DNA from: Amphiscolops sp. MND2022 | Taxonomy: Eukaryota | Assembly (NCBI GenBank): GCA_964187785.1 | Contig: OZ076409.1 | Location: 21,454,001-21,518,000 of the forward strand | Direction of reading: 5' to 3' | Length of the DNA stretch: 64,000 nt | Part shown: positions 12,556-60,475 of the stretch, piece after piece | How positions within the stretch are numbered: the first letter of the stretch is position 1 | Layout of the letters: each line of letters begins with the position of its first letter | The notes under the pieces: generated by a model | Databases searched by the model: none | What the model saw: only the letters and a program-made list of their open reading frames with translations | What the model was told of the DNA's origin: nothing | Translations under genes and position numbers: made by a program

Positions 12556-13944
12556 CGAATATGCAAAGGGCATTATTGTGAAAATTGCATCAAATATACA
12601 GTGCAAAAAATACCTAATGGATAACCATAAGACTCGAAAACCGCTTTTCCTAGCTCGAAACATCAAAAACCCAATTTTTGAAAAACTTTCGAATTTTTTT
12701 CTTGCCGGAAAAAGTCTGATAGTGCCGAAAAACGAAAAACCCAAAAGGAGACTCTAAGTTTTCAAAACTGTTTTTCCAAGCCATTGACTTTTAAAAAGTA
12801 AAAACCCTTTGACCAAATGGATATTTTATTGAAAAAAGTTTCCGAAAAAACCGTAGTTCTTTTTCACAGTTGAGAAAATTTCCCACTTATGGTCTTTTTA
12901 GTCGGCATCAGTCCCACAGGAACTAAGAATAACCAAAGATGTCATTCTTAAGACTCGGAAAGCGGTTTTCGTTTTCGTCAACAGAAAACTTGAAATAGAG
13001 TGAATTTTTTAAAATGTCGTTGATAAGTCGCATAGTGCCGAAAAAATTTAAAGGAATTTTCTGTGCTCGCAAAATGCTTTGTTTTTGTTAAAAAAGAATA
13101 GGGTGGGGGTGTTCGTTAAAGAAACTCAGAGAAAATACGTCGCATAATGTCGAAAAAAAGCCAAAGCAAGCATAAAAAACTTGGTTTTGTGTTGGACTCC
13201 AACCCACGGACTGCTGCTTCTCAGGCCTCGTCACCAGTCCTGGAAATCTGCGTTACTCAGTGGGCCAAATTTCGAAATATATGACCCTTTCAAAACTTGT
13301 AAAAGTGGATGCTTTGAAGGAAGTTCATGCCTTTGTTCTTTTCAAAATCTTGCAGCCAATTTATCGATTGAATTAAAGTGAAGTCGAGAAAAGTTGTGAG
13401 GTATTATTGGAAAATAAAATAAAGGTTTTGGCAGTAATACGACAAGTTTTTTGTTTTAGTTTGTCCAACACTATAGAATACTCGTTAGCTTGTTCCCTTC
13501 TGTCTGTTGCTTCATTTTCTCAAATAAATTCAATGAACGTAACATTTTGCCTAAAATTTACAATTTTTTCATTCTTACCCATTCTAGCATATACGACTTC
13601 AGTGCGTTGCACACCGCCTTTTTCTATTCACACTCTAAAGTTAATTCTTGTGTGTTGAAATAATTTAAAATCAATTGTGGTGAATTACAGATGTCTACGG
13701 GTCTTTGAGGTATAAAGTGAAGTTCTCTTCCTTTATTCGAAAAAACTTGCAGAAAGAAGTATATGTAGTATTTTCTCTCTTCTTACTTCAAATAAGCTCT
13801 GTAAATATTTTTAACCAATAAGAATGGGCCATCTCGAGAGCTGCCATTCAGAAGAGGGGATAGCCTCGAAATTGTAACCCAATCTGGCAACTTTTTATAC
13901 CTTCGTGTATCATTATTCCAGTGATCCGGCAAAAGTAACGCGAC

Positions 13945-14254
13945 AGTAGTAGTGGAAATCCCGATACTGGCCACAAAAACCCCAAAAATTAAAAGTCCTC
14001 AAAACCATTGATTTTAAGTACTTTTTAGAAAACATATCATTAAAAACAATGGTTTTCCGATACTGGCCAACAAAACGCCAAAAATTAAAAGTCCTCAAAA
14101 CCATTGATTTTAAGGACTTTTTAGAAGACAAATCATCAAAAATAGTGTTTTTATCATGAAGCAAAAATTCACTAACCTCTATGATGCAATGTGTAATAAT
14201 AACACGTTGCTGTACAGCCAGCGTTGCTGTACAGCCAGCGTTAATGTACAACCA
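13945..14254 (+). repeat. Left TIR of the Polinton (310 bp)
   Basis: Reverse complement of 28682-28991, with 2 substitutions seen. Contains two ~96-bp direct repeats (starting 13961 and 14057) and the first three copies of a 17-bp repeat. Confidence 0.95.
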
Positions 14255-14318
14255 ACGTTGCTGTACAGCCAGCGTTAATGTACAGCCAACGTTAATGTAC
14301 AACCAGCGTTAATGTACC
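14204..14318 (+). repeat. 17-bp tandem repeat RCGTT(GC/AA)TGTACARCCA, ~6.7 copies
   Basis: Units start at 14204, 14221, 14238, 14255, 14272, 14289 and 14306. Only 3 copies are present at the right end of the element. Confidence 0.9.
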
Positions 14319-14362
14319 GGCGCATACGTTATTCTTATATAACTACAACTAACATTGATTCG

Positions 14363-14608
14363 TCTCCCATAGCTTAGTGGTTATAGCATTGACTAAAGTT
14401 AAGGCTTCGGCCGGAGTGTTTGGGGTTCACTTCTATCCAACGTCCCCCAGTCTTTGTTACAACTTACATGCTATGGGAGAATAATCACCAATGGCACAGT
14501 TCTTAAAAAGGATAATCCCTGCTGTGGAAACTCTTAGTGGAACGGACTCCCGATGGGCTTTGAGTTTACCATAGGCATGTCAATACCAATGGCATGCCTA
14601 TGGGTTTT
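14363..14608 (+). ncRNA. Candidate Pol III-transcribed tRNA-like structured RNA inside the Polinton
   Basis: A-box TAGCTTAGTGG at 14370-14380. TCTCCCATAGC pairs with GCTATGGGAGA (11 bp). There is a GGC-TTCG-GCC tetraloop, a weak B-box-like GGTTCACTTC, and a 14-bp terminal hairpin (14569-14603) followed by the first T4 run at 14605. Confidence 0.5.
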
Positions 14609-14636
14609 GTATTTTTCAACTTTTTCATCTTAATAA

Positions 14637-15464
14637 ATGTATGAAACTCCGTCTCTTCATAAGTTTGGTTATTCTAGTGAACAGCTAAAACTGAGGGAAT
14701 ATCAGGAGCTAAAAGATATGATAAAAAGTCAAGAAAAATTAGCCCAAATAACACATTCCAAATTGAAAGAAGATTTGCAACGCGATTTTGAAAATGACAT
14801 AGAAAATCAAGTAGAAGAAAAAATGCTAGACGCGACAGCTTCCGCGGTAGCTATCACAAAGGCGCATCAAACACTAGACCCACAGGAAATTCAAGATGTT
14901 TTATTAAACACAAAGTTAATGAATGATATTTATTCCCAGTTTTCAGACCTTTCAAAAACCATAAATAAATTAGAACAAAGTATGAAAAAATCTTTCGCCG
15001 AACAAAGAACTGCTTTAGTAAATGAGGTACTAAATTTAATACACAACAATAGTTTTGAAATGTTAACAGTCCGTAATTTAAAGTTTATGAGTCAGGTGGG
15101 CCAAGCTGGAAAGATTTTAAATGAAGATGAAATAAGTAATATTCTTAATGGCCTAGATCAAAATAAAATTACTATAACTAACAACATAATTCAACTGCTT
15201 TATGACAAAGGTTTGTTCGATTCCTTTCCCAATAAAGATCAAGCTTTTGCAAATTATCTAACTTTCAGTGAAACATACCTCTTGGAAAAGTATGGAAAAA
15301 CAATACCTACTTCAGATGGAGAATATTATCTGTCTGATTTAGAATATTCTACCAGACAATCAATTCTGGAGTCATTGAAAAAAGACAATTTTAAAGACCT
15401 TGTTGATATGAAACACAGAATGAAATTAACACCAACGGAAATAAATTTCATTTTATATGATTAA
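14637..15464 (+). CDS. Polinton ORF1, hypothetical helical/coiled-coil protein (275 aa)
   Basis: Long open frame with a TAATAAATG start, abutting the next gene. No motif recognised. Confidence 0.75.
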   Translation: MYETPSLHKFGYSSEQLKLREYQELKDMIKSQEKLAQITHSKLKEDLQRDFENDIENQVEEKMLDATASAVAITKAHQTLDPQEIQDVLLNTKLMNDIYSQFSDLSKTINKLEQSMKKSFAEQRTALVNEVLNLIHNNSFEMLTVRNLKFMSQVGQAGKILNEDEISNILNGLDQNKITITNNIIQLLYDKGLFDSFPNKDQAFANYLTFSETYLLEKYGKTIPTSDGEYYLSDLEYSTRQSILESLKKDNFKDLVDMKHRMKLTPTEINFILYD

Positions 15465-15467
15465 TAA

Positions 15468-16172
15468 ATGGAACAAAAACTCTATCCCTCCCTGACCCCA
15501 ACGGCCTCTCCCCCCGCACCATATGATGTAGAATCAATGATAAATAAGCGATTGCAAAGCGCGTTGCAAAACGAATTACAAAAAGTAAATAGTTTCAATA
15601 ATTCTATTCAAAACATTAGTCTAATGATGAAATATTATGAAATGGAAGAAAAGAAATACAAACAGAAATACAACAAATACAAGCTAATAAATAACCTAAT
15701 TAACTCCATCGATGGCATTATAGTGATTGGAACAACTTCAGCATCAATCTCACTAAGTATTACTGGTGTGGGTATTATAGTGGTTCCAATCGCTGCAGGA
15801 GTTGGTTGTACAACTGGTATTCTTGTTAAGATTTGTTCCAGTTATTTGAAGAAAAAGGAGCAAAATTATAAACTTAAGTACACTATTATTCAGAAGACTC
15901 TTGACGACTTTAGACAACTTTATGTTACTAGCCTAAAAGATAATCATATAGATGAAAAAGAATATCACCGATTTGTGACTCAATTTGAAAATTATCAGGT
16001 AGCTTCGCGCGCGACAGCTAACACAGCTTCGAGCACAGCTTCGCATACAAAATCACAAGTAGCTTCACACGCGACAGCTAACACAGCTTTGCACGCGACA
16101 GCTAACGCGACAGCTAACACAGCTTCACACACACCACCAACAATACCACTTAAACCACACAATTTTTTATAA
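15468..16172 (+). CDS. Polinton membrane protein (possibly PW-like), 234 aa
   Basis: A Gly-rich hydrophobic segment (GIIVIGTTSASISLSITGVGIIVVPIAAGVGCTTGILV) is flanked by Lys-rich helices. N-terminus reads LYPSL/PTASPPAPY. The PW assignment is tentative. Confidence 0.75.
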   Translation: MEQKLYPSLTPTASPPAPYDVESMINKRLQSALQNELQKVNSFNNSIQNISLMMKYYEMEEKKYKQKYNKYKLINNLINSIDGIIVIGTTSASISLSITGVGIIVVPIAAGVGCTTGILVKICSSYLKKKEQNYKLKYTIIQKTLDDFRQLYVTSLKDNHIDEKEYHRFVTQFENYQVASRATANTASSTASHTKSQVASHATANTALHATANATANTASHTPPTIPLKPHNFL

Positions 16173-16284
16173 TTACTTTATTCAATTTTAACATAAAAAA
16201 TAAAATAAAAATTAACACTAATAATTGAAAAATATACTATTGAAAAATATGCTGCTATTAAATTCATAAATTTATTATAAATAA

Positions 16285-19200
16285 ATGGAGAACTGCAGTA
16301 TTTGTAATTCCGATTATAAAAAAGCTTACAAGTCTGATCATCTAAAATCAATAAAACATTTACAAAAATTAAATCAATATTATTGTAAAAAATGTAATAC
16401 ATTTATGCCATTGTCTGACAAGTCTAATCATCTAAATTCAGATGAACATAAAAACAAAACCAAACAACAACGCGAAGCTACACAAATTTGGTGTGAAGAT
16501 TGTGACAAATATATAAGTAATTCAAGACATTTCCAAAGTGAAATTCACACGTTAAGAAGTCAAAACAATGCTACAAAAAACGCATTTGGTAATACACTAC
16601 ATGGAGTAGGAACTGGCGTAGAAATAATTGTGAATGAAAAAACATACAATAAACTGAGAGTAAATCCAACAAATCATCTTGAAGAACAGATTAATGATTT
16701 ACTAAATAAAAATTACTTTCCCCGATACAAGTTCCAATTGAGTTATTTAGCTAAGTTTTCAAAAATAGTTAGTGGGCAGAGCTTCGCAGAAGAAATTGTA
16801 TTTCACAAATGGGTTAAATCAGATTTTAATTACAATTACACGCAGATTGCCCTCGGCACAAACCCAAATATTCACAACATATTAATGCAGAAATTAGATG
16901 ATGAACAATTAGAAGGATCAGGTTTTGTGTTAAACGGTATTGTCAATGTTATATTAGAAATTTATAAAGTCAATGATATTCAAGCTTCTTCATGGGTTGA
17001 GTTGCCAGAAAAATATAAGAATAATAAATCAATTATAAATATAAAAAATGATGATCAATTTTGCTTTTTGTGGTGCATCCTAGCACACCTTTTTCCCGTT
17101 GAGGATCATAAAAATAGAACATCAAATTATTCAATGCACACGAACAAACTACTCATTTTAAATGGTTTAGAATTCCCCATGAAAATTAAAGATTTTCCCC
17201 AAGTTCGAAAACTTAAATAATTTAAACGTAAATGTATTTGAACTCACAAAAACAGTTTTAACACCAATCCATATCAACACAAACTATGATCAACCACAAA
17301 TAGATTTATTATTATATCAAAATCTCTATTGCTTAATAACAAAATTGCATTGTCTAATAAATAAGGATTCGCACATGAAATGGGTGTGTAGAAGATGCCT
17401 AACTGCATTTAGTTCTGAGGATATTCTCAGTCAACACATTGACCGTTGTCAAAAACAACAACCAACTAATATCACATTCAGTTGGAAGGATCACTTAAAG
17501 TTCGAAGATTATCATATGAAAGTTCCCATACCAATAAGAGTATATGCAGATTTTGAATGCATTAATCAACCAACAGACGACCCCAAAGTATTATTTAAAC
17601 AAATTCCAATTGCAGTAGGATTTTATATAATTTCACCATTTGGTAATAATTACAGCTCATACTTTGGTGAATCGTGTGTAACATGGTTTGTAAATGAAAT
17701 GTTGACTCTGGAAAACATTGCTAGTAACTATTTTGAAACAAATTTACCTCTTGAAATAACTCCTGAAGAACATCAATCATTTCAACAATCCAAAGTGTGT
17801 TGGCTTTGCGAACGAAAGTTAGACGGTGAGGGCGAAGCTACGCATAACGTTCGAGATCATGATCATCTTACAGGCAAGTACCGAGGAGCAGCCCACAACA
17901 AATGTAATTTAAATTGTAAAAAAAAGTCAAGTTCGTTTGTTCCTATATTTTTCTATAATTTCAGTGGTTATGATTGTCATTTAATTTTTGAAGAACTCTT
18001 AACATCAGCTTATAATCTAAAGTTACCAATAAATATTATACCAAAGTCAATGGAAAATTATGTAAGTGTGCAAGTAGGTTGTTTAAGGTTTTTAGATTCA
18101 TACAGATTTTTGAGTAGTAGTCTACAGAAACTTATAACATCATTAAATGATTTTCCTTATATGCAAAATGAGGGCCTAACTGATGATTTATTTAAGGAAA
18201 AACTAGCTTATCCATACGAAAAATTCAATCTTAACAACCTGCTTGAACCACTAAATCTAACAAAAGAGGACTATTGGTCAACACTGAATCAATCTTACCC
18301 ATGTGAGGATGATATAAAAAGAACCCAACAATTGATTGACACTTACATTACAACAGCACAAGAACTAACAGAATTGTACTTAAAAATGGATGTACTACAA
18401 CTCACTGACGTGTTCGAAAACTTTGTTGAGAAGTCTACACTTGAATACGGCATCAATCCTTTGTACAGTTACTCTTTACCTGGTTATACATGGAAAGCTG
18501 GTTTAAAACTTACTAAAATTAAATTAGATTATATAAAATGTAAAGAATTATTATTACTTTTAGAAAACAATATACGTGGAGGAATTTCAAGTGTAATGGG
18601 ACCCAGATTCATTGAGTCAAATGAAAATACTAAATTACTGTACATTGATGCAAATAACTTGTATGGATGGGCAATGAGTCAATACCTTCCTACAAGTGAA
18701 TTCGAAAAACTAGATTTCCCAGAAGAGTACGAATTAGAACAAATGATAGAAGATTTGAGATTTATTCCAGACAATAATGAATTTGGATACTTTATAGAAT
18801 GTGATTTAGAATATCCAGCAGAAATTAAAGAAAAAACCGAAAACTTTCCACTTTGTCCTTATCAAACAAAAGCCGATCCAAATCTTTTCTCAGAATACAT
18901 GAACAGTGTAAAACAATCCAACTACAAACCAACCGAGAAACTTATGTGTGACCTAACAAATAAATATAATTATATGATGCACTACAGGATGTTCAAGTTT
19001 TACACCCAGATCGGGATGAAAGTAACAAAGATTCACACAATCTACCGGTTCAAACAATCACTTTAGTTAGAAAAATACATTAATCATAACACACAAAAAC
19101 GCACCAAAGCAAAAACAAACTTTGAGAAGGACCTCTACAAATTAATGAACAACGCTTTCTTTGGTAAGACTATGGAAAATGTTAGAGACCGGACTAATTT

Positions 19201-20113
19201 AGAGTTTATCCCTCACACCAATATTGATCAAATAATAAAAAGACAATCGAAGTTAAGCTTCAAAGGAATTACTAATCATTACTCCGAATTCAGTGTTTAC
19301 AAGTTTGATAAGGAAAAAGTAATTTTTGATAAACCAATATACTTGGGGTTTAGTGTTTTAGAACTGAGTAAATTGTTAATGTATGAGTTTTATTATCACA
19401 AATTACAACCATATTATAACAATAAAATTAAACTGCATTACATGGATACAGACTCATTCATTCTAAGTATTAAAACTGGAGACCTTATAAATGATTTGGA
19501 ATACTTCAAAGATGATTTTGATTTCAGCGAGCTCGACCCAAGTCATGAGTTGTACAACTCAATCAACAAGAAAGTTATAGGTAAAATGAAAATAGAAACA
19601 TCACCAATTATTGAATTAAACAACTTCGTAGCTTTGAGATCTAAATCATATTCTTTTAGCTATGGCTCAGCACAAAAGCTAACACAAGAGGCAAAGCAAA
19701 GAACAATTCAGAAATCAAAACAAAAAGGAATACAACATACACCAATTTATTCACAATTTATAAATTCATTATTTAACTCTGAAACAACAACTGCAACTAA
19801 TTATTCTATTAGAAGTAATGCTCACAACTTAACTGTTCAGAAACAAGATAAGCTAGCTTTGAATCCTTTTGATGACAAAAGACTGTACTTGAATCCAATA
19901 CAAAGTTTATCATGGGATAAACACACACAAAAAGGTGATTGTCCTTGTATACTTTGTATAAAATTAGTTGGTTTGTATTACACCGAACTGAGCACAAGGG
20001 ATGGCACAAGCCTCCCAGATGAAGAAATATACTATAACATTTGGACTCTGAAAGAAAAATTGAATCATCAACAGCTTTTAAATCTGATAAGTGATCGGGC
20101 CCATTTATTGTGA
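16285..20113 (+). pseudogene. pPolB: Protein-primed family B DNA polymerase (~1275 aa reconstructed), disrupted
   Basis: Three N-terminal C2H2-type fingers; vOTU-like DDQFCFLWCI; ExoI YADFE; endonuclease VII-like CWLC..RDHDHLTGKYRGAAHNKCN; polymerase motifs YIDANNLYG, KLMNNAFFGK and YMDTDS. A +1 frameshift near 17195-17200 (gattttccccaag) and an in-frame TAG at 19064-19066 (expected Trp) separate ORFs 16285-17220, 17345-19066 and 19145-20113. Confidence 0.93.
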
Positions 20114-20244
20114 TTACTATCGTGATAACTATCGTGACGCACAGCTTTCGCGATAGCTTTCGCACACATCTTTTATAATTAGAAATATCATTTATTATCA
20201 TTTATAATTATTAATCTATGATTCATCATTCCTCTCATATCAAA

Positions 20245-21492
20245 TCAAATGAGGTCAAAATGCCTTTGCCCATCACTACTAATACTTATTAGTTTTGGGG
20301 TTAATACAAGTGCATAAGCTATATAATCTGCTACATCAATGGCAGCATTAAATTTAAATTCTAAACGGATTGACTGACTCGCAATGATATCCCTTTGTTT
20401 GCTGAGGTCAAATACATAAAAATTATAATTTGTTCTGAATTTGTTCAAATCAATAAATGGATTGAGTAAGTTAGTTTCACTATTCAAGTGATAAAAGTTT
20501 TCAATTTCACTATATGCTTGATCATATTTGTCGCGGTCGTAATCACATTCAATCCCATCATCGGAATATTTTTCTGATCCTATTTTACAAACAGCATTAC
20601 TAATTGGCAACCGGTCAAACACTGCATTATCATGAACCTGAGAATCAATTTTATTTCTAGCTTGAAATCCAACAATCACAAAAGTTGGAGTCGATGTTCC
20701 CGAAGATCCGCCTGCGCTGCCTAATTCAAATGTCCAATTCGAATTCGTGTTAACATCTTTTCTAAAAATAATTCGTTCCGTGTAACTCAATTCGGTTGGA
20801 TCTTTATTTAGAATTTGGTCCATGACAAGTTGTTGGTTTTCGATACTGGGAACATAGTGTGGGATATACCAACCAATGTCTTTAATAACCACTTTTGCAG
20901 CATCCACTCCAACACTTCTTAAAATGGCGTCATTGTTAGTGTTCCGTTTGAGTGTAAGAGTGTAGCCCAACCCATAAGTTATTTTTTCTTGATCAGCAAA
21001 TCCAAACAAGTCTTTTAGTTTTATTCTCACAAAAAAGGTTCCTTTCTCATTTTTGTTGTTTGTTAGTTCTTGTCTTCTTATAGTAGTATCTTCTTCAAAC
21101 CCATACATTAATTGACTTGTGGATTTAGTGCTTGTCAGAAGTTTATACATTAAAGAAATCAAGTGCAAATTGTCAACTTTTTCCAGGTGTTTCCCACTAG
21201 AAGTTGTTAATTTGGCTTCACTAAACAGAGAGATTGGCCCAAAGTTAACCAATCCAATTTCATCACCATCAGCAAATCTTGTATTATTGTTTTTAAGTAC
21301 TTCAAATTCTAAACTTAAATAACTATTTTGTAAACAAATATAAGCATCTTCTCTTGGGAAACTAATTGTAGTATTCGAGTTTGTATTGTTAATTGTCGCC
21401 AAACTACTTGGATTATACTTTATGAAATCAATTTTATGAATAGGTTTTTCAAGAGTGTATTTATTTTTTAAAGAAAACATATCTCTGTTCAT
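20245..21492 (-). CDS. MCP: Double jelly-roll major capsid protein (Polinton PY), 415 aa
   Basis: Size and motifs fit Polinton MCPs (SYLSLEF, NFGPISLFSE, LKDLFGF, PTFVIVGFQ, FYVFDLSKQ). The ORF is intact. Confidence 0.85.
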   Translation of the reverse strand: MNRDMFSLKNKYTLEKPIHKIDFIKYNPSSLATINNTNSNTTISFPREDAYICLQNSYLSLEFEVLKNNNTRFADGDEIGLVNFGPISLFSEAKLTTSSGKHLEKVDNLHLISLMYKLLTSTKSTSQLMYGFEEDTTIRRQELTNNKNEKGTFFVRIKLKDLFGFADQEKITYGLGYTLTLKRNTNNDAILRSVGVDAAKVVIKDIGWYIPHYVPSIENQQLVMDQILNKDPTELSYTERIIFRKDVNTNSNWTFELGSAGGSSGTSTPTFVIVGFQARNKIDSQVHDNAVFDRLPISNAVCKIGSEKYSDDGIECDYDRDKYDQAYSEIENFYHLNSETNLLNPFIDLNKFRTNYNFYVFDLSKQRDIIASQSIRLEFKFNAAIDVADYIAYALVLTPKLISISSDGQRHFDLI

Positions 21493-21551
21493 TTATAATA
21501 AAAAATTATTGCGAAAGCTATCGCGAAAGCTCCGCGAAACTACGTCGAAAA

Positions 21552-22478
21552 TTACTCAAACCTGTGGAAAATATTCATACTTTCTAACGTTTTGTTGTTA
21601 GAGTCAAAGTCGAATATGCTTCTTAAAAGTTCTTGTTCATAGTATTTTCCTTGAATAATTTCTCCGTTTTCATCATTTAGAGTGTATGTTACTGGGTTTG
21701 TTTTGTTGATGCTGTGTATTTTAAAAAGTTCTCTATTCCAATTTGTTGTATAACCTTTTGAATAAATGTTCCTTTTGTCAGGAACTCTTACAAAATCCCC
21801 CACTTGGAATTTGGCGAAGCTTTGCGCGAAGCTGCGGTAGCTATCGCGGTAGCTATCGCGCGGTTGTTTCGGTTTATTAACAAAGGTAGGTGGATCTATT
21901 GGTTTTTTATTCGCTTCAAAAGGTGTCATTTTTGTTGTGGTATGGACACGATTATTATACTTTTGTAAAGCAGCATCAAGGTGATTCAACCAGTTACCTT
22001 TACCCTCAATATACATTGGTTCTTTGATTAAGTCCAGAAGTGTTCTATTGAAACGTTCAACAAAAACAGCCTTCAAATCTGAATTAGTTGAATAAATTTG
22101 AATGTTTTGCTCTTTTAAATAGTGTAAAAATGTTGTGTTGTAAAACTCTTTACCTCTATCACTCCATATTTTGTGTGGTTTTCTCTTCTCTTTTTCAATG
22201 AGACTTTTTATTGCAGTTGTTGTACTTTTTCCTGATTTATCTTTGAGGGGAATCGCCCATGCATATTTGGTATGATTGTCAATTATTGTGAAAATAAACT
22301 TGTAGTTTTTGTTGTATTTGCTTAAGTTTGAGCGATCAATTAAATCGATACTCCAACATTCATCTTTATAGTGAGTTTGTATTTGAATTCTTTGAAACTT
22401 CTTAATTACAGGAGAGAATATTTCTTTAGCAATCTGCTCTTTGTGAAGCTCCGCGCGAAGCCCTGCATTTTGATTCAT
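21552..22478 (-). CDS. INT: Retroviral-like DDE integrase, 308 aa
   Basis: WSIDLID, WSDRGKEF and VERFNRTL form the DDE triad; also YNNRVH..TKMTP and FQVGDFVR..KGYTTNW. No C-terminal chromodomain is visible. Confidence 0.96.
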   Translation of the reverse strand: MNQNAGLRAELHKEQIAKEIFSPVIKKFQRIQIQTHYKDECWSIDLIDRSNLSKYNKNYKFIFTIIDNHTKYAWAIPLKDKSGKSTTTAIKSLIEKEKRKPHKIWSDRGKEFYNTTFLHYLKEQNIQIYSTNSDLKAVFVERFNRTLLDLIKEPMYIEGKGNWLNHLDAALQKYNNRVHTTTKMTPFEANKKPIDPPTFVNKPKQPRDSYRDSYRSFAQSFAKFQVGDFVRVPDKRNIYSKGYTTNWNRELFKIHSINKTNPVTYTLNDENGEIIQGKYYEQELLRSIFDFDSNNKTLESMNIFHRFE

Positions 22479-22595
22479 TTATTATAGTTTTATAACAATT
22501 TTTTATAAATAAATGAATAATGATTATTGCTTGCAGAGCTATAGAAATAATTATCAAGATGAAGGAGCCGGCGCGAAAACTAGCGCGGGAGGTGG
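22418..22595 (+). repeat. 178-bp direct repeat, copy 1
   Basis: Matches 24119-24296 with 1 mismatch (offset 1701 bp). Confidence 0.95.
22479..22512. promoter_or_regulatory. 34-bp bidirectional intergenic region between integrase and ATPase 1 (putative divergent promoter)
   Basis: CAT-TTATTATAGTTTTATAACAATTTTTTATAAATAA-ATG; both start codons lie within ATAAATG. Confidence 0.5.
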
Positions 22596-23721
22596 CGCGG
22601 GAGCTGGCGCGGCCAATTGGTATCAGAAAACACGAATTTATAAAGTAATCACAAATCCTATGTTTATTGTATGTTTAATTTTATTTATAGGTATTATTGT
22701 TGTAATATATTGGAATTATATTCGCCCTAGGCAGGTTAAAACAATTAATAAAAAACTACTACAATTTGCAGGGTTCAAATACTCTCATCTGACAAACCAG
22801 GAACGCGAAGCCCCCCAGGATACACGCGAAGCTACGCACAACCATTCTCATTGCAACGCGCATTTCATAATCTATGGCAGTAGTGGCTCTGGGAAGACAA
22901 GTTTTTTAAAGCATTATTTGGCACAACGTCCCCACGACAAGTCCTGTGATAGCCCCCGCAGTTATTTAGTATTTGGGAGAGATGAACGTGAGTTTCCCTC
23001 TCAAAATTTTGTACCACTACTGCAGTTGGAGAAAGTTAGTATTGAATCACTTGCTAATAAAATTGTTGTACTGGATGATGCAGGTGCATACAAGAACCTT
23101 AGATTGAAAGTAGAAGACCTTTTCCGATTTGGTAGACACTTGGGGATTCAAGTGATATACCTTGCTCACTATGCAAAGGATGTTCTTCCAATCGTGAGGG
23201 AAAATTGCTTCAAAATATACCTAACAATTAATAACCCAGATAATTTCTTCGAGTCGATTGGACAAACTTATGCAATAGCTTCCACAATCAAAGAACTTAA
23301 TTGGAAATACTACCGGGATCAGTTAGAATATGGCATAATTGAACTGGACACAAGGAGTCAGAAATTTAAGATACTAAACGACAAGTACAACTTAATTTAT
23401 GATTCGAGCAAACGAAGTAAATGGGGTCCAGAACAACTTGTTGCTTATGAAAGTTACTTTTTCACTGGTGATGAATACAACAGACTCAAAATTTTCTTAG
23501 AGGAAATGTCCGACCAGACAATTGAAATAACACCACTCAACATAGCTTATTATTATGTAGCCTATTGCAAACAAAATAATATTAAAGTAAATGAATCCAA
23601 AATAAAAAACTACGTTGAGCGTATGCAAAAACCACTAATTAGTGATTCAGTTAAAGAGGACTTTAAAAATTTAATTTATGATCAGGCAAAAAGTTTTACT
23701 AAAAATAAACTGAGTAATTAG
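22513..23721 (+). CDS. A32/FtsK-HerA-like ATPase 1 with N-terminal transmembrane segment, 402 aa
   Basis: Walker A GSSGSGKT, Walker B VVLDD, and the FRFGRH...REN motif. Hydrophobic segment PMFIVCLILFIGIIVVIYW. Confidence 0.88.
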   Translation: MNNDYCLQSYRNNYQDEGAGAKTSAGGGAGAGAANWYQKTRIYKVITNPMFIVCLILFIGIIVVIYWNYIRPRQVKTINKKLLQFAGFKYSHLTNQEREAPQDTREATHNHSHCNAHFIIYGSSGSGKTSFLKHYLAQRPHDKSCDSPRSYLVFGRDEREFPSQNFVPLLQLEKVSIESLANKIVVLDDAGAYKNLRLKVEDLFRFGRHLGIQVIYLAHYAKDVLPIVRENCFKIYLTINNPDNFFESIGQTYAIASTIKELNWKYYRDQLEYGIIELDTRSQKFKILNDKYNLIYDSSKRSKWGPEQLVAYESYFFTGDEYNRLKIFLEEMSDQTIEITPLNIAYYYVAYCKQNNIKVNESKIKNYVERMQKPLISDSVKEDFKNLIYDQAKSFTKNKLSN

Positions 23722-23754
23722 CGGAAGCTATCGCGAGAAATTAGTAAAAAAAAT

Positions 23755-24012
23755 ATAGTGATTCTTAGAGAAATTTAGAGAAATTTAGTGATTCTTAGAG
23801 GAATTTAGTGATCTCTAAGAATCTCTAAATTTCTCACTAAATCACTAAGGTTTCACAAAGAGCATTTATTTTCACTAAATTTCACTATAATCTCTAATCT
23901 TAGAGAAATAAATACTCTTAAAGGAATTTAGTGAAACCTTAGAGGGATTTAGTGAATTTGGCTTAGTGAAATTTAGTGATTACATAGTGATTATTAGAGG
24001 AATTTAGTGATT
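23755..24012. repeat. Non-coding array of TTAGTGA/TCACTAA direct and inverted repeats
   Basis: About 7 forward and 3-4 inverted copies; inverted arms of ~23 bp at 23778-23836. Confidence 0.8.
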
Positions 24013-24025
24013 TTTTACTAAATAA

Positions 24026-24130
24026 ATGAATTGCTTAATTTGTAATAAAAGTAGTGAAAAAAGTTTGTGTGATGATTGTAGTAATAAAAAAAGATGTAAA
24101 GATTTCTTTTATTTGGTGATATTTCTTTAG
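24026..24130 (+). pseudogene. Orphan Zn-finger mini-ORF, probably the original 5' end of ATPase 2
   Basis: AATAAATG start. Translates MNCLICNKSSEKSLCDDCSNKKRCK..., with a stop inside the duplicated segment. Confidence 0.45.
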
Positions 24131-24296
24131 CAATCTGCTCTTTGTGAAGCTCCGCGCGAAGCCCTGCATTTTGATTCATTTATTATAGTTTTATAACAAT
24201 TTTTTATAAATAAATGAATAATGATTATTGCTTGCAGAGCTATAGAAATAATTATCAAGGTGAAGGAGCCGGCGCGAAAACTAGCGCGGGAGGTGG
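24119..24296 (+). repeat. 178-bp direct repeat, copy 2
   Basis: Matches 22418-22595. Confidence 0.95.
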
Positions 24297-25299
24297 TAGT
24301 TTTCATACTCACCTTTTTATTATGAAGAATTGTAATACTTTTTATTCATACAAAAATGGTAAAATGTATAGTACATGCATTCAATGTTTTAATAAAAAGG
24401 TGAGGTGTGAATTTTGTAATAAGGAATTAAATAAGAGTTATTTAAGGTCACACGTCAAGAAGCAACACTATAATCAACACTATAATTATAATCAGCACTA
24501 TAATCAGCATACTGGGGGTGATTTGCTTCCGCGACAGCTATCGCGACAGCTAACGCGACAGGTATCACGAGAGCTACAGCGAGAGTTACCACGAGGCGTG
24601 TCTTCACACAATAATAATAATGCGGAAGCTAACGCGAAAGCTATCGCTAATGATGATAATGCGGGAGCTAACGCGGGAGCTAATGCTAATAGTGGTGTGA
24701 ACGAAACTAATAGAACATTAATAGTTGGGCCATCATTTTGTGGTAAGACTCATTTGTTGTTGAATAAATTACGATTGATTCGTTTGGAAGATCCAGAGAA
24801 ACAAATTCGTATCATTACAAGGAGTCCGGAACAATATGAGGATGTGGAGCTTTATATTCAAGGAATAGAAGTGGAAGAAAATGTGGGGGATTTGGAAGAG
24901 TATAGGGGGTGTTGTGTAGTATTTGATGATATGTTAGACTCCAACCAGAAATTGATTGATCCATTTTTTACTAGGGGAAGACACAAATCTTGTGATGTTT
25001 ATTATTTATGTCAGAGTTATTTTGATGCACCAAAAAAGACAGTTAGAAACAATTCGAATATAATAATTTTATTTCAACAAACACTGAAAGATGTAGAACA
25101 TATTCATAGGGACATATCAGGTTTTGATATGTCTTATGAGGAATTCAAAAGTTTGTGCAGAGAGGCATGGAACGAAAAATTCAATTATTTATTAATAAAT
25201 AGATTGGAAGATAAAAATGGGAGTAGGTACAGGATTTGTAATGAATCTAATCCAAATTACAAGATCTTTAATCCACAAACTGATCCTTTAAGTAATTAG
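24214..25299 (+). CDS. A32-like genome-packaging ATPase 2 with N-terminal Zn finger, 361 aa
   Basis: Walker A GPSFCGKT, Walker B VVFDD, and FTRGRHKSCDVYYLCQSY..VRNNSN. C2H2 finger CEFC..HVKKQH. Confidence 0.92.
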   Translation: MNNDYCLQSYRNNYQGEGAGAKTSAGGGSFHTHLFIMKNCNTFYSYKNGKMYSTCIQCFNKKVRCEFCNKELNKSYLRSHVKKQHYNQHYNYNQHYNQHTGGDLLPRQLSRQLTRQVSRELQRELPRGVSSHNNNNAEANAKAIANDDNAGANAGANANSGVNETNRTLIVGPSFCGKTHLLLNKLRLIRLEDPEKQIRIITRSPEQYEDVELYIQGIEVEENVGDLEEYRGCCVVFDDMLDSNQKLIDPFFTRGRHKSCDVYYLCQSYFDAPKKTVRNNSNIIILFQQTLKDVEHIHRDISGFDMSYEEFKSLCREAWNEKFNYLLINRLEDKNGSRYRICNESNPNYKIFNPQTDPLSN

Positions 25300-25315
25300 G
25301 GACTTCGTGAGGAGA

Positions 25316-26341
25316 TTAGGAGATCAAGTTGCTTCGTGCGTAGCTCTGTATATTTTGGTGTTGAGAAGGTGATATGCATTCATACTCCAATAACTTGTCT
25401 ATAATTGCAATAATTTGTTCATTAAGCTGAGGGTTGTCATTTCCTCCAACTTTTTCAAAATAAAGTAGTTTCAATTGATCCACTAATTCGTCTGGGTCAG
25501 ATGGGAGGAAAATGTACTGTTGTGTGGAACTTCGCGAATATTCGCCATTTAATCCACTTCCTGTGAAGCCCTGTGTATAGCTCTGTGATTGGCCTTGTGC
25601 GAAGCCTTGCGTGTAGCCCTGCAATTGATAGCGAGAGTATAATTCTTTAATAAATTGGTATCTGATTGATTTTTTATCTCCATAATTTAGATCATATTTC
25701 ATATCATTTAGGAAAGTATAAATTATGTCCAGGTTATTTATTTGTTTGTCAAATTGTGTATTAGTTACAAAATATTGAAGATCTGGGTCACTAAGATCAT
25801 ATGAATTCCCACTCTCAAAAGTCATTGTTGAACCTTTGATTAGTACTTGCTGTGGGTTATGGGGATTAATTGTGAATAAATTAGGATTGTCTTGTGCGAA
25901 GCTCTGTGTAATTGGTTCTAAACTAAATTGACTTTTGTTTTTGTCATTAAGTAAATTAGAAACTGTTTTTACAATACTAGAATCAACCTGGTTGGAATTA
26001 ACAAGACTTGTAAGAAGTTGATTGTTATGATTTGTAATTTCATTATATTGTTTTATTCCTTCTTTAATAGAATTTTGAAGAGTATTATTATTGTGTTCTA
26101 TTGCTCTTGTCTGATTTTCAATTGCTTGTGTAACCCCTTGGGTTTGTTTGTCAATGGCTTGTAGTTGTTTTTCATTTGATTCCACCTGCTTTGTAGTAAC
26201 AGGTTCAAAAACTTCTTCAAGGTCATAATGAAAGTCTTGCTTCCCTAGTTTCTCTTTTAATCTTTCTTTGTGTACTAAAGATTTTGTTTCTTGTAATTTT
26301 TTTAATTTTTCCAAGTCATCTCGGGTGTGAATTGAATACAT
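25316..26341 (-). CDS. Polinton structural/core-type protein, 341 aa
   Basis: Coiled-coil N-terminus, a GSGL putative cleavage site, and a C-terminal LPSDPDELVDQLKLL..GGN motif that I associate with Polinton accessory proteins. Confidence 0.75.
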   Translation of the reverse strand: MYSIHTRDDLEKLKKLQETKSLVHKERLKEKLGKQDFHYDLEEVFEPVTTKQVESNEKQLQAIDKQTQGVTQAIENQTRAIEHNNNTLQNSIKEGIKQYNEITNHNNQLLTSLVNSNQVDSSIVKTVSNLLNDKNKSQFSLEPITQSFAQDNPNLFTINPHNPQQVLIKGSTMTFESGNSYDLSDPDLQYFVTNTQFDKQINNLDIIYTFLNDMKYDLNYGDKKSIRYQFIKELYSRYQLQGYTQGFAQGQSQSYTQGFTGSGLNGEYSRSSTQQYIFLPSDPDELVDQLKLLYFEKVGGNDNPQLNEQIIAIIDKLLEYECISPSQHQNIQSYARSNLIS

Positions 26342-26354
26342 TTATTAAGTATAA

Positions 26355-26873
26355 TTAGTGGATTTTCCCCAGATACAGGCCTTTACTATTAGTTCTTGCT
26401 TTTCTGTTTGTGTTGCTTGTGTTAGCTGCTTTGCTGCCTGCTTTGCTGCCTTTACTCGACAAACCTTCGCGAAGCCCTTCAGCTTTGTATAACCCCTTCC
26501 CTTGATGAACAAATTTAATAACGTCAGGGGCAGTTGCGGCAATTAATCGTGGATTTTTACTTGCTGCTGCAGTTCCAATATTTGCTGCTATTTCTAGTGC
26601 GCGGCCTGGATTATTGAGTATTTTCTTTCCAACATTTTTGGCTGCAGAACCTAAATGTTTGAAAAAGTCTCCCAATCCTTCACCATCTATTGTTCGTTCA
26701 CTCACAATAAGACTCTTATTTCTGTTACATATCATGCAGTTGCCACGTAATATTTTTACGGGCCTGCCCATCTGTATCCCAGTGTTTGTAATATCTCCAT
26801 AAATATTTGTGGTGGGAGAATAATGTTTTCCACAAACACAATATGAATTATTTATAAATTTATTATAACTCAT
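26355..26873 (-). CDS. Small basic protein with N-terminal Zn-ribbon and amphipathic helix (putative virion protein), 172 aa
   Basis: YCVC...GNCMIC zinc ribbon, followed by IDGEG-LGDFFKHLGSAAKNVGKKIL. Confidence 0.72.
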   Translation of the reverse strand: MSYNKFINNSYCVCGKHYSPTTNIYGDITNTGIQMGRPVKILRGNCMICNRNKSLIVSERTIDGEGLGDFFKHLGSAAKNVGKKILNNPGRALEIAANIGTAAASKNPRLIAATAPDVIKFVHQGKGLYKAEGLREGLSSKGSKAGSKAANTSNTNRKARTNSKGLYLGKIH

Positions 26874-26940
26874 TTATTAGAAAAAAATTTTCATTTTTGT
26901 GGAGCTTCGTGAAAGCTATCGCGAAAGCTATCGCCCAACA

Positions 26941-28000
26941 TCATATTTTGATAATTTGAATTGTGAAGGTGAGTGTCTCCCCGTTGAAATCAACTGAATC
27001 ATGATTAGAGTCCTCAAGGAATAATTGAATGGTGTCCAGTCGTGTTTTGTTAATTGATTTGTACAAAACAGTTGTGGGTTCTTTTATAATTTTATATCCG
27101 GGAGGTGCGCTTAAATTGAAAGAAAATAAAATTTGTTCTCGTATACCATTAACAATTGAACCATCTACGCAGTCGTACTTCAGATGAACTTTATCGGTGG
27201 TTGTTATCATGACTGGTTTTTCTGAAGTGTGAGTTCCGGATGGGTAATCACGTTGTGTAAAACCCAGGACTTTGTTAAGTTTGGAGTTAAAATGAATAGG
27301 GTTTGAGGTTGTTAAAACTGATTTCATCGATATTGTGTCGGGTATTATGTTGAATTCAATACTAAAAACTGTAAGATCTTTTTTGAATTTTGACTTATCA
27401 TCTAATTCATAACCTGAATCAGTAATTATTTGTTTTATGGTATTATTTATTTCAATCAGTTCGTATACACCTGGAACTAAATTTATATCAATAAACTCAT
27501 TCTCAATTTCAAAGTTTGGAATAGTTATAGGAATGTTGCTCTTCATTTGCTTTAAATAGTCAAAATCTTTTTTCGGAAGTTTCTTCTTTTTTATAACTAG
27601 TAAGTAAATATATATTAGCTTTTTCTATAAATTCATAGTAGAGTTTATTATTTTCTAAATCATAAGTTTCAAATAGTTTTTTTATATTTGGCACCACTCC
27701 TGTGTCAAACTCAGGTGCATCGAGTTGTTGATCATTCAGAATAATTTGTAGTTTGTTATTCTTTTCAGTAATGTTATATACAGTGTTGTATACTTCTAAA
27801 CTTGTTACTCCCATCATCCATTTTTCATTTAAAGTGAGAGGAACGTCGAATGAGAAAGATTCTTTTTGTTTAGTCATTTTAAATTCTAGAGTTTCTTGTG
27901 GTTTAGAATGAGTATTTTCAACAATTTCTTGATTAGATTTTGCAATACTTAAAAGAAGAGATTCTTTTTTATCATAAGCTACGAAGGTGGATAGATCCAT
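26941..28000 (-). pseudogene. mCP: Minor capsid protein/penton (Polinton PX), split by a +1 frameshift
   Basis: N-half has PLTLNEKWMMGVTSLEVYNTVYNITEKNN. C-half has PGVYELIEIN..VLGF..VDGSIVNG..PPGYKI..VDFNGETLT. The frames differ by one base, plausibly in the A-run near 27585-27595, and the shifted frame reads straight through (KKLPKKDFDYLKQMK). Confidence 0.82.
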
Positions 28001-28058
28001 TTATTATAGATTAAATTGTTTGAATCCACTAGCGGAAATGTTATTTATAAATTCTTGC

Positions 28059-28235
28059 CTATCTTTTGATAATGTTTTTCTTATGCGATAGCTTCCGCAA
28101 ATTTGTTGTATTTTTTCCATGATTTTGATTGTGAAGCTGTTCTGTGGAGCTGTGCGTGAAATTTTGTGCGTTAGCTGTCGCGAAGCTGTGCGAGATAATT
28201 TTATATTGAGTTGAATAATTATTAATTTTCTTCAT
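28059..28235 (-). CDS. Small hypothetical ORF (58 aa), possibly frameshifted
   Basis: TAATAAATG start overlaps the protease stop codon and the ORF fills the protease-penton gap. A second frame (KTLSKDRQEFINNISASGFKQFNL*) ends just before the penton start. Confidence 0.35.
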   Translation of the reverse strand: MKKINNYSTQYKIISHSFATANAQNFTHSSTEQLHNQNHGKNTTNLRKLSHKKNIIKR

Positions 28236-28657
28236 TTATTAAGTTTGAAAGTTTGGTAGTATAAATTTAGTACTGCATTTTTGAACCCAATTTTATTTGT
28301 GAGATACAGTGTGTATAAACAATACGCCGCGCAATAACTGTCGTTTGTCTGAATTTGATATTCTGAATAAATACCATTTTTAATATGATTAAGTATATTA
28401 GTTGGGGGTGGGCATCCATATGAATCAAAATAGTTTTGATTTGTAAACATAACCCAATGTGTTCCCACTGAGGGATATAAGTTAACTATACCACTGGTAG
28501 TGTTAAACTTATCATCTCTCATGTATATTCCACACACTGTATTTATTTCGCCGGAGGCACCAAGCCTATCAAGTATTTCTTTTATTTTTACATTGGAAGT
28601 TGCTTCGTTTTTTAGTCCGTATTTTTCAACAAATTCTTTGAATGATAAATAGTTCAT
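28232..28657 (-). CDS. PRO: Adenain-like cysteine (maturation) protease, 141 aa
   Basis: GTHWV (His), YFDSYG (Asp) and QIQ..DSYCAAYC (Gln/Cys). Confidence 0.93.
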   Translation of the reverse strand: MNYLSFKEFVEKYGLKNEATSNVKIKEILDRLGASGEINTVCGIYMRDDKFNTTSGIVNLYPSVGTHWVMFTNQNYFDSYGCPPPTNILNHIKNGIYSEYQIQTNDSYCAAYCLYTLYLTNKIGFKNAVLNLYYQTFKLNK

Positions 28658-28681
28658 TTATTAGTTATTTTTCATTGTTGC

Positions 28682-28991
28682 TGGTTGTACATTAACGCTG
28701 GCTGTACAGCAACGCTGGCTGTACAGCAACGTGTTATTATTACACATTGCATCATAGAGGTTAGTGAATTTTTGCTTCATGATAAAAACACTATTTTTGA
28801 TGATTTGTCTTCTAAAAAGTCCTTAAAATTAATGGTTTTGAGGACTTTTAATTTGTGGCGTTTTGTTGGCCAGTATCGGAAAACCATTGTTTTTAATGAT
28901 ATGTTTTCTAAAAAGTACTTAAAATCAATGGTTTTGAGGACTTTTAATTTTTGGGGTTTTTGTGGCCAGTATCGGGATTTCCACTACTACT
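28682..28991 (-). repeat. Right TIR of the Polinton (310 bp)
   Basis: Inverted match to 13945-14254; ends ACTACTACT and is followed by the TSD CGCGAC. Confidence 0.95.
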
Positions 28992-30540
28992 CGCGACGAT
29001 GACGTGCCTCGTTTTAATCAAAACTTTGAATCTTCTATTCTGTGGCATTGCATGTTGATTTCATTTCTCAACGGCAAAGTTGAAGCTTCAGTTGGGAAGT
29101 TAGGTAATACGTGTGGGTCTTTTAGGTTTCCAATGGACTTAATTGGAAATGAAGTCCAAAAAATAATTAATCCGAGAAATAAAGATTGTTGAATTGAAAA
29201 ATTTGATTACTGTATGACTCAGCCTTCCTCCTTGGCGCTCCTCCAGGTCGACCTTTGTCAAAACCAGCTGCTATACTGGCAATGGGACGTCGCTCCTGCG
29301 TTTAGGGTACTAGAAGTATGTTGTCGTCGCAGATCCCGAGTGCCTTCTTCGGACGTTGTTTACTAACAAAACTTGGACGTTATTTCTTTGCACCGTCGCA
29401 GAAAATACTTTAAATAGTGACGCAACTTTAGCAGTCACATTACAAACTAGGAAGTAGTTTTGTAGCTATTAGGGGATGGGTTTTGACGAATGTTACTGGG
29501 GGAGTTTGAATACCAGAAAAGACCCGATACTATTTCAATTGTTTTTGTCTGTTCGAATCAAATCTTTCATAACAAATGGGGCCAGTCTGGGTTTGGATGA
29601 ACATATTTCAAAATCATTCGCTGGACATCTGATACTCCCCAGTGGAGATAAGAGAACTTCATTCCATCTAAAAAAAACAATATACCAAAAGTTGAATCTA
29701 CACTAATTTCCTTTCATTATCATTAATTCGAATTGTTGAAACAGTTGTCAGTAGTGATTCTCTTTTCAAGTAGCGATTATTGATCTTCGGTTGTGTTCTT
29801 CAACTATAGATATTCTGTTGCTGGGATAAAATGAGCAAGAAAAACAGACCAAAATTAATGTCGTTTTGAATGTCGACCAAATTTGTTTGTGGTGTAGACT
29901 TTTACGTACTGTCAGCTCATCTAAAAATTTGAGTTGAAAACTTTGATTGACAATCAATACCGCCATTTTTAACACAGTGACATAATATAAAATATGAAAC
30001 AACTGGCACAGGTGAATTGTTTTCTTTTCAACAGAACCGGCGCACGTGATTGGTAACTTTAAAGTGTCAGTACGGGACAGAACATCCGATTTTCGAATTA
30101 GACCTAACAGTCGATTTCTTCTAATCCGTGATTTTGCAAATACGACGAAGCAATCTGTTATACTGAGGTTAGACAGAATTGAAAAAAGATAACAAATCGG
30201 GAACGGTCAAGCCGGCGCCATGTTTGGGCTCGAAAAGCGCAAAGACATTCTTTTAAAAATCTGATTGAATTCTGGAAGCTTCTTAGAAATCATACAGATG
30301 AGAAATTCTCCAGAAATAAATAACGTCGAACGTTTTCCTCAATCTTTTCAAAATATGCAGTAGCAAGAGCGAGCATTTTGTAAGATTGAGAGTATCTGGA
30401 CAAAACAAAAGCGAGCAAAATATTTGAGGACCAAGTTACACAGAAATAAAACACACATAGGAGTAGTGGACATCCTATAATGCCCTAAATGCAGGAGGGA
30501 AGGAGAGTGACGTGCCAGTTTTAAACAGCGAATGTTTTGA

Positions 30541-59755: not shown

Positions 59756-60475
59756 CAGGGCTGGCAGTTTTACTCGGAGCAAAACGGCGAATTACTCGGG
59801 GTAATACTCGGGCATTTAATGTTTTTTACTAGCTAAATTACTCGATAAATACTCAGTGTTACTAGAAAAGTTGTTTCAAAACCTTGTTGAATTTACATAA
59901 AGAAACAAAAGTTCACGAATTGAGTCATTGCTTAAAGTCTGGCGCTCATCAGTGAGGAGTTTATTGTAGTACGAGAAGACGCGCTCAACAGAAGCAGAAG
60001 AAGGTAGCAAAAAACAATAAGTTTTTGCAATTGTTGCTAAATTTGGAAGTTCATCACTGACCGACATCCAAAAATCCAAAACTTGTTGAATTTCGGCCTT
60101 CAGGCTTTCGAAAGTGTCTCCCGCGGGACTAGACACAAATGTTCTTGCTTTTGCCCGGTAATGTAAAAATTCGGCCTCAGGTACTTTAGAAATTCCAGGA
60201 ATCTTCAAAGAATTTGGTCTAACAGAGAAGGAAAGAGATTTGCTGGGAACTAGAAACTGGACATCTTTAAAATATTGCAAGCCAGGGAAGCAACCGTTTT
60301 CGCCAAAGTATTTGAGATACTTGGACTCGGCAGAAAGAGCAGCTGTTGAAATTTTGCGTATCAGTTCCAGTTGCTCGGAGCTGGTAAAAGTTTCTGTAAT
60401 TTGATCCAAGATTTCCGTTAATGAATCTGCCAAGAGTTCTTTTTGAGAAACAATTTCGAAAAACACATTTTTCAA
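59756..60475 (-). mobile_element. Truncated hAT transposon: 3' transposase fragment plus terminus
   Basis: ORF 59876-60475 encodes a hAT dimerisation domain (DFWM..LPNLATIAK..LPSSASVERVFS..TDERQTL). Terminus CAGGGCTGGCA at 59756 with TTACTCG subterminal repeats. Confidence 0.85.

Follow-up and report, generated by a model that had tools for sequence, protein, structure and literature searches.

The 64,000-nucleotide stretch of contig OZ076409.1 of Amphiscolops sp. MND2022 analysed here (the window) carries, within an animal genome, a Polinton of 15,047 bp (positions 13945-28991) in which each gene begins with the same compact signal, a T-run followed by WAATAAATG (W, A or T). This start signal is real and non-random. 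Judging from the sequence, we consider it probable (roughly 0.6) that a helper virus of the Nucleocytoviricota supplies the RNA polymerase that reads the starts, with the element behaving as a virophage-like parasite.

An earlier note on this DNA had reported ATAAATG at 13 gene starts, and this is borne out, since every one of the 13 positions is an ATG directly preceded by ATAA. The signal reads TAATAAATG at eight of them (14637, 15468, 22478, 26341, 26873, 28000, 28235 and 28657), AAATAAATG at four (16285, 22513, 24026 and 24214) and TTATAAATG at one (21492). Counting them as 13 gene starts is too generous, however. Because 24214 is a copy of 22513 within a 178-bp duplication (22418-22595 repeated at 24119-24296), 12 starts are independent, and because 24026 and 28235 open frames of just 34 and 58 codons, 11 belong to gene-sized open reading frames (ORFs). 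Long ORFs that lack the motif begin at 17375, 19145 and 27546 and represent downstream parts of the broken polymerase gene and of what is probably a broken penton gene. The absence of a same-strand gene upstream of four starts (ORF1, integrase, ATPase 1 and protease) and the distance of 34 bp between the back-to-back integrase and ATPase 1 starts are both as originally described. The element is organized as follows:

13939-13944, no strand: left target-site duplication, 6 bp, CGCGAC
13945-14254, + strand: left terminal inverted repeat, 310 nt, 99% complementary, first bases AGTAGTAG
14615-14639, + strand: start signal of ORF1, T-run and TAATAAATG, no same-strand gene upstream
14637-15464, + strand: ORF1, 275 aa, an orphan throughout the family, predicted helical with low confidence
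15468-16172, + strand: ORF2, 234 aa, containing a hydrophobic segment; TAATAAATG start, the first TAA of which terminates ORF1; ATG out of frame at -11
16285-20113, + strand: protein-primed polymerase gene, AAATAAATG start, in three ORFs (16285-17220, 17375-19066 and 19145-20113)
20245-21492, - strand: major capsid protein, double-jelly-roll, PF21738; TTATAAATG start
21552-22478, - strand: rve integrase, PF00665; TAATAAATG start
22479-22512, no strand: divergent spacer, 34 bp, with two start signals back to back
22513-23721, + strand: ATPase 1, PF04665 (A32-like), N-terminal hydrophobic helix; AAATAAATG start
24026-24130, + strand: cysteine-rich ORF, 34 codons, AAATAAATG start, adjoining the duplicated block on its 5' side
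24119-24296, no strand: 178-bp copy of 22418-22595, source of the ATPase 2 start signal and first codons
24214-25299, + strand: ATPase 2, matching packaging-ATPase ORFs of relatives
25316-26341, - strand: 341-aa ORF common to related Polintons; TAATAAATG start
26355-26873, - strand: 172-aa ORF, basic, amphipathic, putatively core-protein-like; TAATAAATG start; ATG at -21 ended by a stop
26941-28000, - strand: probable penton gene, ORFs 28000-27560 and 27546-26941; TAATAAATG start at 28000
28059-28235, - strand: 58-codon ORF, its TAATAAATG within the final protease codons (overlap by ATGA)
28232-28657, - strand: probable adenain-type protease, matching ORFs of relatives; TAATAAATG start; ATG at -18 ended by a stop
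28682-28991, - strand: right terminal inverted repeat
28992-28997, no strand: right target-site duplication, CGCGAC

AGTAG ends, long terminal inverted repeats and a 6-bp target duplication are features of Polintons/Mavericks, and this element has all three, with inverted repeats of 310 nt each that are 99% complementary, AGTAG termini and the duplicated target CGCGAC. Its gene set is likewise that of a Polinton, with Pfam matches to the PF00665 integrase, the PF04665 ATPase and the PF21738 capsid protein. The polymerase is homologous to intact polymerases of 1200-1400 aa in relatives and, as in the Beta type, is not matched by PF03175. For the probable protease, which we take to be adenain-type from motifs, and the probable penton protein, no matches were obtained in Pfam or the PDB, and the only matches were to ORFs of relatives.

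The association of the motif with gene starts is far stronger than composition would predict. ATAA precedes 22 of the 483 ATGs in the element; 14 of these are the listed starts and the duplicated integrase start, leaving 8/469 (1.7%) elsewhere, and in the window flanks, which provide the sole control for host starts, it precedes 13 of 1576 ATGs. The window contains 11 occurrences of TAATAAATG where 1.85 are expected, and none of 100 shuffles reached 11. When the 40 bases upstream of the starts were shuffled, an average of 0.7 of the 12 starts carried the motif, and not one of 500 shuffles attained the observed 12/12. The signal also extends further upstream than originally described: in 9/12 starts the tenth base ahead of TAAAT is a T (shuffle mean 4.8, P 0.015), the Ts at -13 to -8 number 40 rather than the 28.8 obtained by shuffling (P 0.002), and at 10/12 starts at least 21 of the 25 upstream nucleotides are A or T. 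The starts have in common only their last 7-9 bases and the T-run, whereas their flanks differ.

Two extra copies of the signal (20191 and 20201; 20189-20207, - strand) follow the capsid gene and open frames of 20 and 130 codons antisense to the polymerase gene; possible explanations are a poly(A) signal, the remains of a gene or antisense initiation. Separately, the block containing the divergent integrase/ATPase 1 promoters has been copied beside the 5' end of ATPase 2, giving that gene a new start (24026-24296).

The spacing of the T-run and TAAAT is that of vaccinia late promoters, which combine TAAAT and a following G with a conserved T located ten bases upstream amid weaker Ts (PMC11980589). 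In the window, TAAAT overlaps the start codon at all 12 independent starts, as it does in vaccinia late and intermediate promoters, which also share the T about ten bases upstream and an AT-rich core of about 20 bp (PMC11980589, PMC5294985). What sets the window apart from vaccinia is that its signal lies in an integrated animal Polinton without a transcription polymerase of its own, and that ATAA is invariant and found in all gene classes, including the polymerase and the integrase.

The marks of a start used by the host's RNA polymerase II (Pol II), namely a purine at -3 and a splice acceptor before the ATG, are absent from the window. The base at -3 is a T at 12/12 starts and a purine at none, although three groups of relatives have a purine there in 59/65, 21/25 and 30/39 cases. 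YAG does not occur within 20 nt upstream of any of the 12 starts; this speaks against a shared spliced leader and led us to reject adenovirus-like splicing, or trans-splicing, to every gene. Moreover, four genes are preceded by upstream ATGs, at -11, -18, -21 and -36. Taken together, the T at -3, the upstream ATGs and the missing YAG appear to fit best with an RNA that starts in the AAA and acquires an A leader by slippage, a process documented in vaccinia and in linear yeast elements (PMC6211774).

Related Polintons provide the comparison needed to read this pattern. We collected 189 loci with related polymerases (175 groups after merging, window included) and five fuller stretches, and tested starts, chosen by hand, in the 14 loci rich enough in genes; the choice omitted frames to which no start could be clearly assigned, comprising most integrases of the AT-spacer group and mis-called polymerase starts. 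In this group of relatives with AT-rich spacers and PF21738 capsids (L152, L193-L196), TAAA lies within 12 nt of 58/65 starts (shuffle 25.5), and alignment on TAAA reveals an A-run at -21 to -15 and a T-run at -13 to -8, a form that resembles the vaccinia intermediate class. The conserved core in the wider clade is TAAA, not TAAATG. Divergent spacers in the group measure 34, 40 and 44 bp in three loci, values of 696 and -27 coming from broken or mis-called neighbours, and upstream ATGs are not avoided (ratio 1.05). The same holds for nuclear processing words in the coding strands of this clade (AATAAA 95 vs 80, GTRAG 91 vs 100).

Other lineages look different. Three controls with the gene set of the AT-spacer group (L018, L027 and L037) carry CAGT, the arthropod initiator, at 10/25 starts (shuffle 2.8), have divergent spacers of 324-328 bp and are depleted of out-of-frame upstream ATGs (0.48, P 0.015). 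Upstream ATGs are also depleted in six Polintons with overlapping genes (0.59, P 0.005), and both control groups avoid splice-donor words (GTRAG 0.72, z -2.5; RGGTRA 0.31, z -3.3). On the basis of these contrasts in spacers, upstream ATGs and CAGT, Polintons can be divided into a host-like and an AT-spacer type, with the window as the strictest case of the latter.

Three side observations concern these relatives. The CAGT-containing upstream regions of L018, L027 and L037 are GC-balanced and L027 has a PF21738 capsid, which suggests a switch of promoter type within one clade. In four of the five relatives of the AT-spacer kind, no start signal belongs to the integrase frame itself (L152:6790-6960, L193:3340-3580, L195:7545-7650 and L196:3200-3350); the frame opens near A-runs where the preceding gene ends, in another frame, the preceding gene encoding a phospholipase A2/DUF5679 protein in three cases; slippage, frameshifting or decay may be responsible, and the frames vary among loci. 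Finally, TTTT is strongly avoided in the coding strands of L152 and L193-L196 (280 vs 401, ratio 0.70, z -7.5), as would be expected if poly(T) served as a terminator, as it does in African swine fever virus; the window does not show this avoidance.

As for possible sources of a matching polymerase, families of TBP, TFIIB and RNA polymerase were not found at Pfam sensitivity in 14 window ORFs and 78 further ORFs, although a very divergent factor may have escaped. Viral contigs were scanned for pairs of signals lying back to back, which yielded at least 120 loci from 9 of 64 parts of the collection. Beyond the matched pair, 23/107 ORFs in 14 loci from giant-virus bins start with TAAATG, compared with 56/524 in 64 other loci, and the highest shares are 6/8 (L204) and 7/10 (L262). 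Two bins, G011 and G012, both encode VLTF3 and a nucleocytoplasmic large DNA virus capsid protein, and G012 also RNA polymerase subunit 2; the best PDB matches of their capsids are 6OJN/8HIF and 7YJL, which we take to be iridovirus and marseillevirus capsids. In three stretches of these bins not chosen by motif, TAAATG occurs at 13/51 starts and TAAA within 9 nt of 33/51, although the giant-virus shares are upper-end values because the bins were chosen via the motif; ATAA precedes 38/2323 of all ATGs in these stretches. Their capsid promoters resemble those of the AT-spacer Polintons. As TAAATG is common in these two non-pox bins and in L204, the signal is not specific to poxviruses, and the poxviral label that had been attached to it is too narrow. 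L273, which carries ankyrin genes and is presumably a poxvirus, did not serve as a direct poxvirus control, none of its ten other starts, in what looks like a terminal region, being TAAATG. At 100%, the window lies above all virus stretches that contain at least four starts, a result to be expected if one late-type promoter serves all of its genes, as in mavirus. In the same scan we noted two Polinton-like viral contigs (L230 and L250; 47-50% GC) whose AT-only spacers end in TAATAAATG or AAATAAATG and which may parasitize giant viruses like those represented by L204 and G011.

We favour a helper polymerase while leaving the kind of helper wide: an iridovirus- or marseillevirus-like virus or another member of the Nucleocytoviricota is a tentative candidate, and a pox-like virus a somewhat less likely one. 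The T-run plus WAATAAATG would constitute a late-type promoter of about 25 bp, read by the polymerase of a co-infecting large DNA virus. Transcription would begin in the AAA of TAAAT and slip, generating a 5' poly(A) leader, so that the T at -3 would never enter the mRNA. Each gene would form its own unspliced unit, all genes probably being switched on together late in helper infection, during a cytoplasmic phase of the element, and integrated copies would otherwise stay mostly silent, as with mavirus. A resulting antiviral benefit for the host is a matter of speculation.

The proposed dependence on a large DNA virus polymerase gains indirect support from the T-run spacing, the T at -3, the lack of an acceptor, the contrast with host-type sisters and the lack of avoidance of nuclear processing words, both AATAAA (36 vs 30 by codon shuffle) and GTRAG (11 vs 10.7) occurring in the window coding strands at unreduced frequency. 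Other points weigh against a helper polymerase. The window shows no avoidance of TTTT in the coding strands (1.06), of T5NT (7 vs 7.8) or of TAAAT inside genes (53 vs 50.6), and out-of-frame upstream ATGs, taken in the window alone, give no significant result (ratio 0.66-0.74, P 0.16-0.18, n=12). Exact TAAATG is found at just 5/65 starts of the AT-spacer relatives, and since the relatives' DNA compared lies outside the window's own capsid subclade, the invariance of the exact motif rests on one copy. The giant-virus loci were first found with the motif, and AT-rich spacers resemble one another easily. Furthermore, the more than 1000 capsid relatives mean that heritable integration is frequent, and this is less easily imagined with a lytic helper in each round. 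PIWI knockdown relieves the repression of planarian Polintons in the nucleus (PMC8532177), so that helper-free transcription exists in the group.

The strongest competing explanation, although an unlikely one, is an element-specific promoter that is read in the nucleus by host Pol II with the aid of a Polinton-made factor, either a TBP-like protein from another Polinton family or the product of an unrecognised ORF such as ORF1. TAATAA does look like a TATA word, the high copy number suits helper-free transposition, and ORF1 has no function assigned by searches, with no matches in Atlas, the PDB or PHROG. Its model, however, is helical and coiled-coil-like and weak (predicted local distance difference test score, pLDDT, of 42), and neither the window nor the scanned relatives contain a TBP or TFIIB family member. 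In addition, TATA boxes lie about 25-30 nt from the Pol II start, and one abutting the ATG would put that start within coding sequence. The lack of avoidance of nuclear signals and the uniform T at -3 also speak against this possibility.

Improbable, in our view, is that the signal merely condenses a stop codon, a poly(A) signal and an A-rich start context, with long or polycistronic Pol II transcripts and re-initiation at each ATG. AATAAA is indeed contained in 11 of the 12 independent signals, TAA stands in frame at -3, and in three genes a short in-frame upstream ORF is closed just before or near the start. Nevertheless, four starts have no upstream same-strand gene, and a single start of the 12 uses the TAA of the word as the stop of the preceding gene. 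In L152 and further relatives the TAA lies out of frame owing to an extra A, and the T-run at a fixed distance is left unexplained.

We assign similarly little weight to the signal being a relic of a helper-dependent ancestor, or a single copied cassette, in elements that now move as ordinary transposons. It is true that one start was demonstrably made by duplication, that the polymerase and penton genes are broken in this copy although its ends are 99% identical, and that the family forms a long branch. Yet the starts share no flanks beyond the short core and T-run, an unused word would decay, and the gene breaks may be assembly errors or recent. Insulation by an in-frame stop was rejected in view of the relatives that shift the TAA out of frame, and a general Polinton or host Kozak bias in view of the frequencies elsewhere (exact TAAATG at 25/282 automatically called starts of other Polinton loci; 43/1574 flank ATGs).

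Among known systems, the life style suggested by a helper polymerase resembles that of mavirus and other virophages, whose late promoters are also those of their helpers (PMC6428243, PMC8547959). Common features are an rve integrase, a protein-primed polymerase, host integration, one AT-flanked promoter word and the lack of transcription genes. The window differs in its Polinton-type capsid, its animal host and its use of TAAAT instead of TCTA. A capsid of the virophage type (Lavidaviridae) is absent, the window protein falling within the PF21738 Polinton clade, which makes it less likely that the element is a lavidavirus but not that it works like one. Polinton-like elements also occur in entomopoxvirus occlusion bodies; unlike the window, they were found as such in these bodies and several have no rve integrase, and the main text of the report contains neither "promoter" nor "TAAAT" (PMC11296320). 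The linear yeast elements pGKL1/2 use a TAAAN initiator at 12 genes and form 5' poly(A) leaders by slippage (PMC6211774). In contrast to the window Polinton, they encode their own RNA polymerase and are cytoplasmic. They are not known to possess a capsid or an integrase. In gene content, the counterparts are animal Mavericks/Polintons and adintoviruses with Beta polymerases, which share terminal repeats, integrase, a polymerase without PF03175, capsid, ATPase and probably the protease; promoters and helpers go unmentioned in the main text of their description (PMC8502044). The sister elements examined here, however, use CAGT-type or overlapping-gene starts.

We found no report of a TAAATG start signal in Polintons in the openly visible literature, bioRxiv supplements excluded. 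New in this work are the controls with sister Polintons, the looser form of the signal across the clade and the finding that giant viruses other than poxviruses are an equally good fit. The mode of expression of animal Polintons, and their possible need for a helper virus, have long been debated questions, and no virophage life cycle is known to be established in an animal, the nearest paper being confined to genomics. The fixed start signal makes this question accessible to one experiment, which would ask whether the 5' ends carry a poly(A) leader, and offers both a sequence rule for sorting Polintons by polymerase and a bait for the helper. It is tempting, if tentative, to extend this reasoning to a broad clade of animal Polintons as endogenous virophages of large DNA viruses, whose promoter style would tell the polymerase used, of the giant-virus type in the AT-spacer clade and of the host Pol II type in the CAGT and overlapping-gene lineages; the window's family, with its more than 1000 capsid copies, might then protect its invertebrate host, as a heritable defence, from a pox- or iridovirus-like virus yet to be discovered.

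As for the family itself, related capsid proteins gave 1080 matches, the best 120 of which show 80-95% identity and lie mostly on long contigs. The window forms its own subclade within the PF21738 clade in a quick capsid tree, and in a polymerase tree of 40 rows made by a quick method it remains unplaced on a long branch. No close relatives were found in the scanned viral contigs or in phage records. Many Polinton contigs are located in prokaryote bins, among them one in a bacterial bin (L123) with a tandem duplication of about 4.7 kb that spans the polymerase end, the integrase and small genes.

Several minor features of the window deserve mention. A non-coding block of about 300 bp with degenerate TTAGTGA/TTAGAG repeats separates the two ATPases (23721-24025), and there is no Rfam match within the element. 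A family of CG-rich words, AGCT-N1-2-CGC and its mirror (for example GCGAAAGCTATCGCG), reaches 2.2/kb in the element vs 0.04 in the flanks; these words are grouped right after several stop codons and form in-frame runs within ORFs, and might act in termination or be a footprint of replication. Outside the element, the sole match among the 61 window frames searched is a hAT transposase fragment (PF05699) at 59876-60511 on the - strand.

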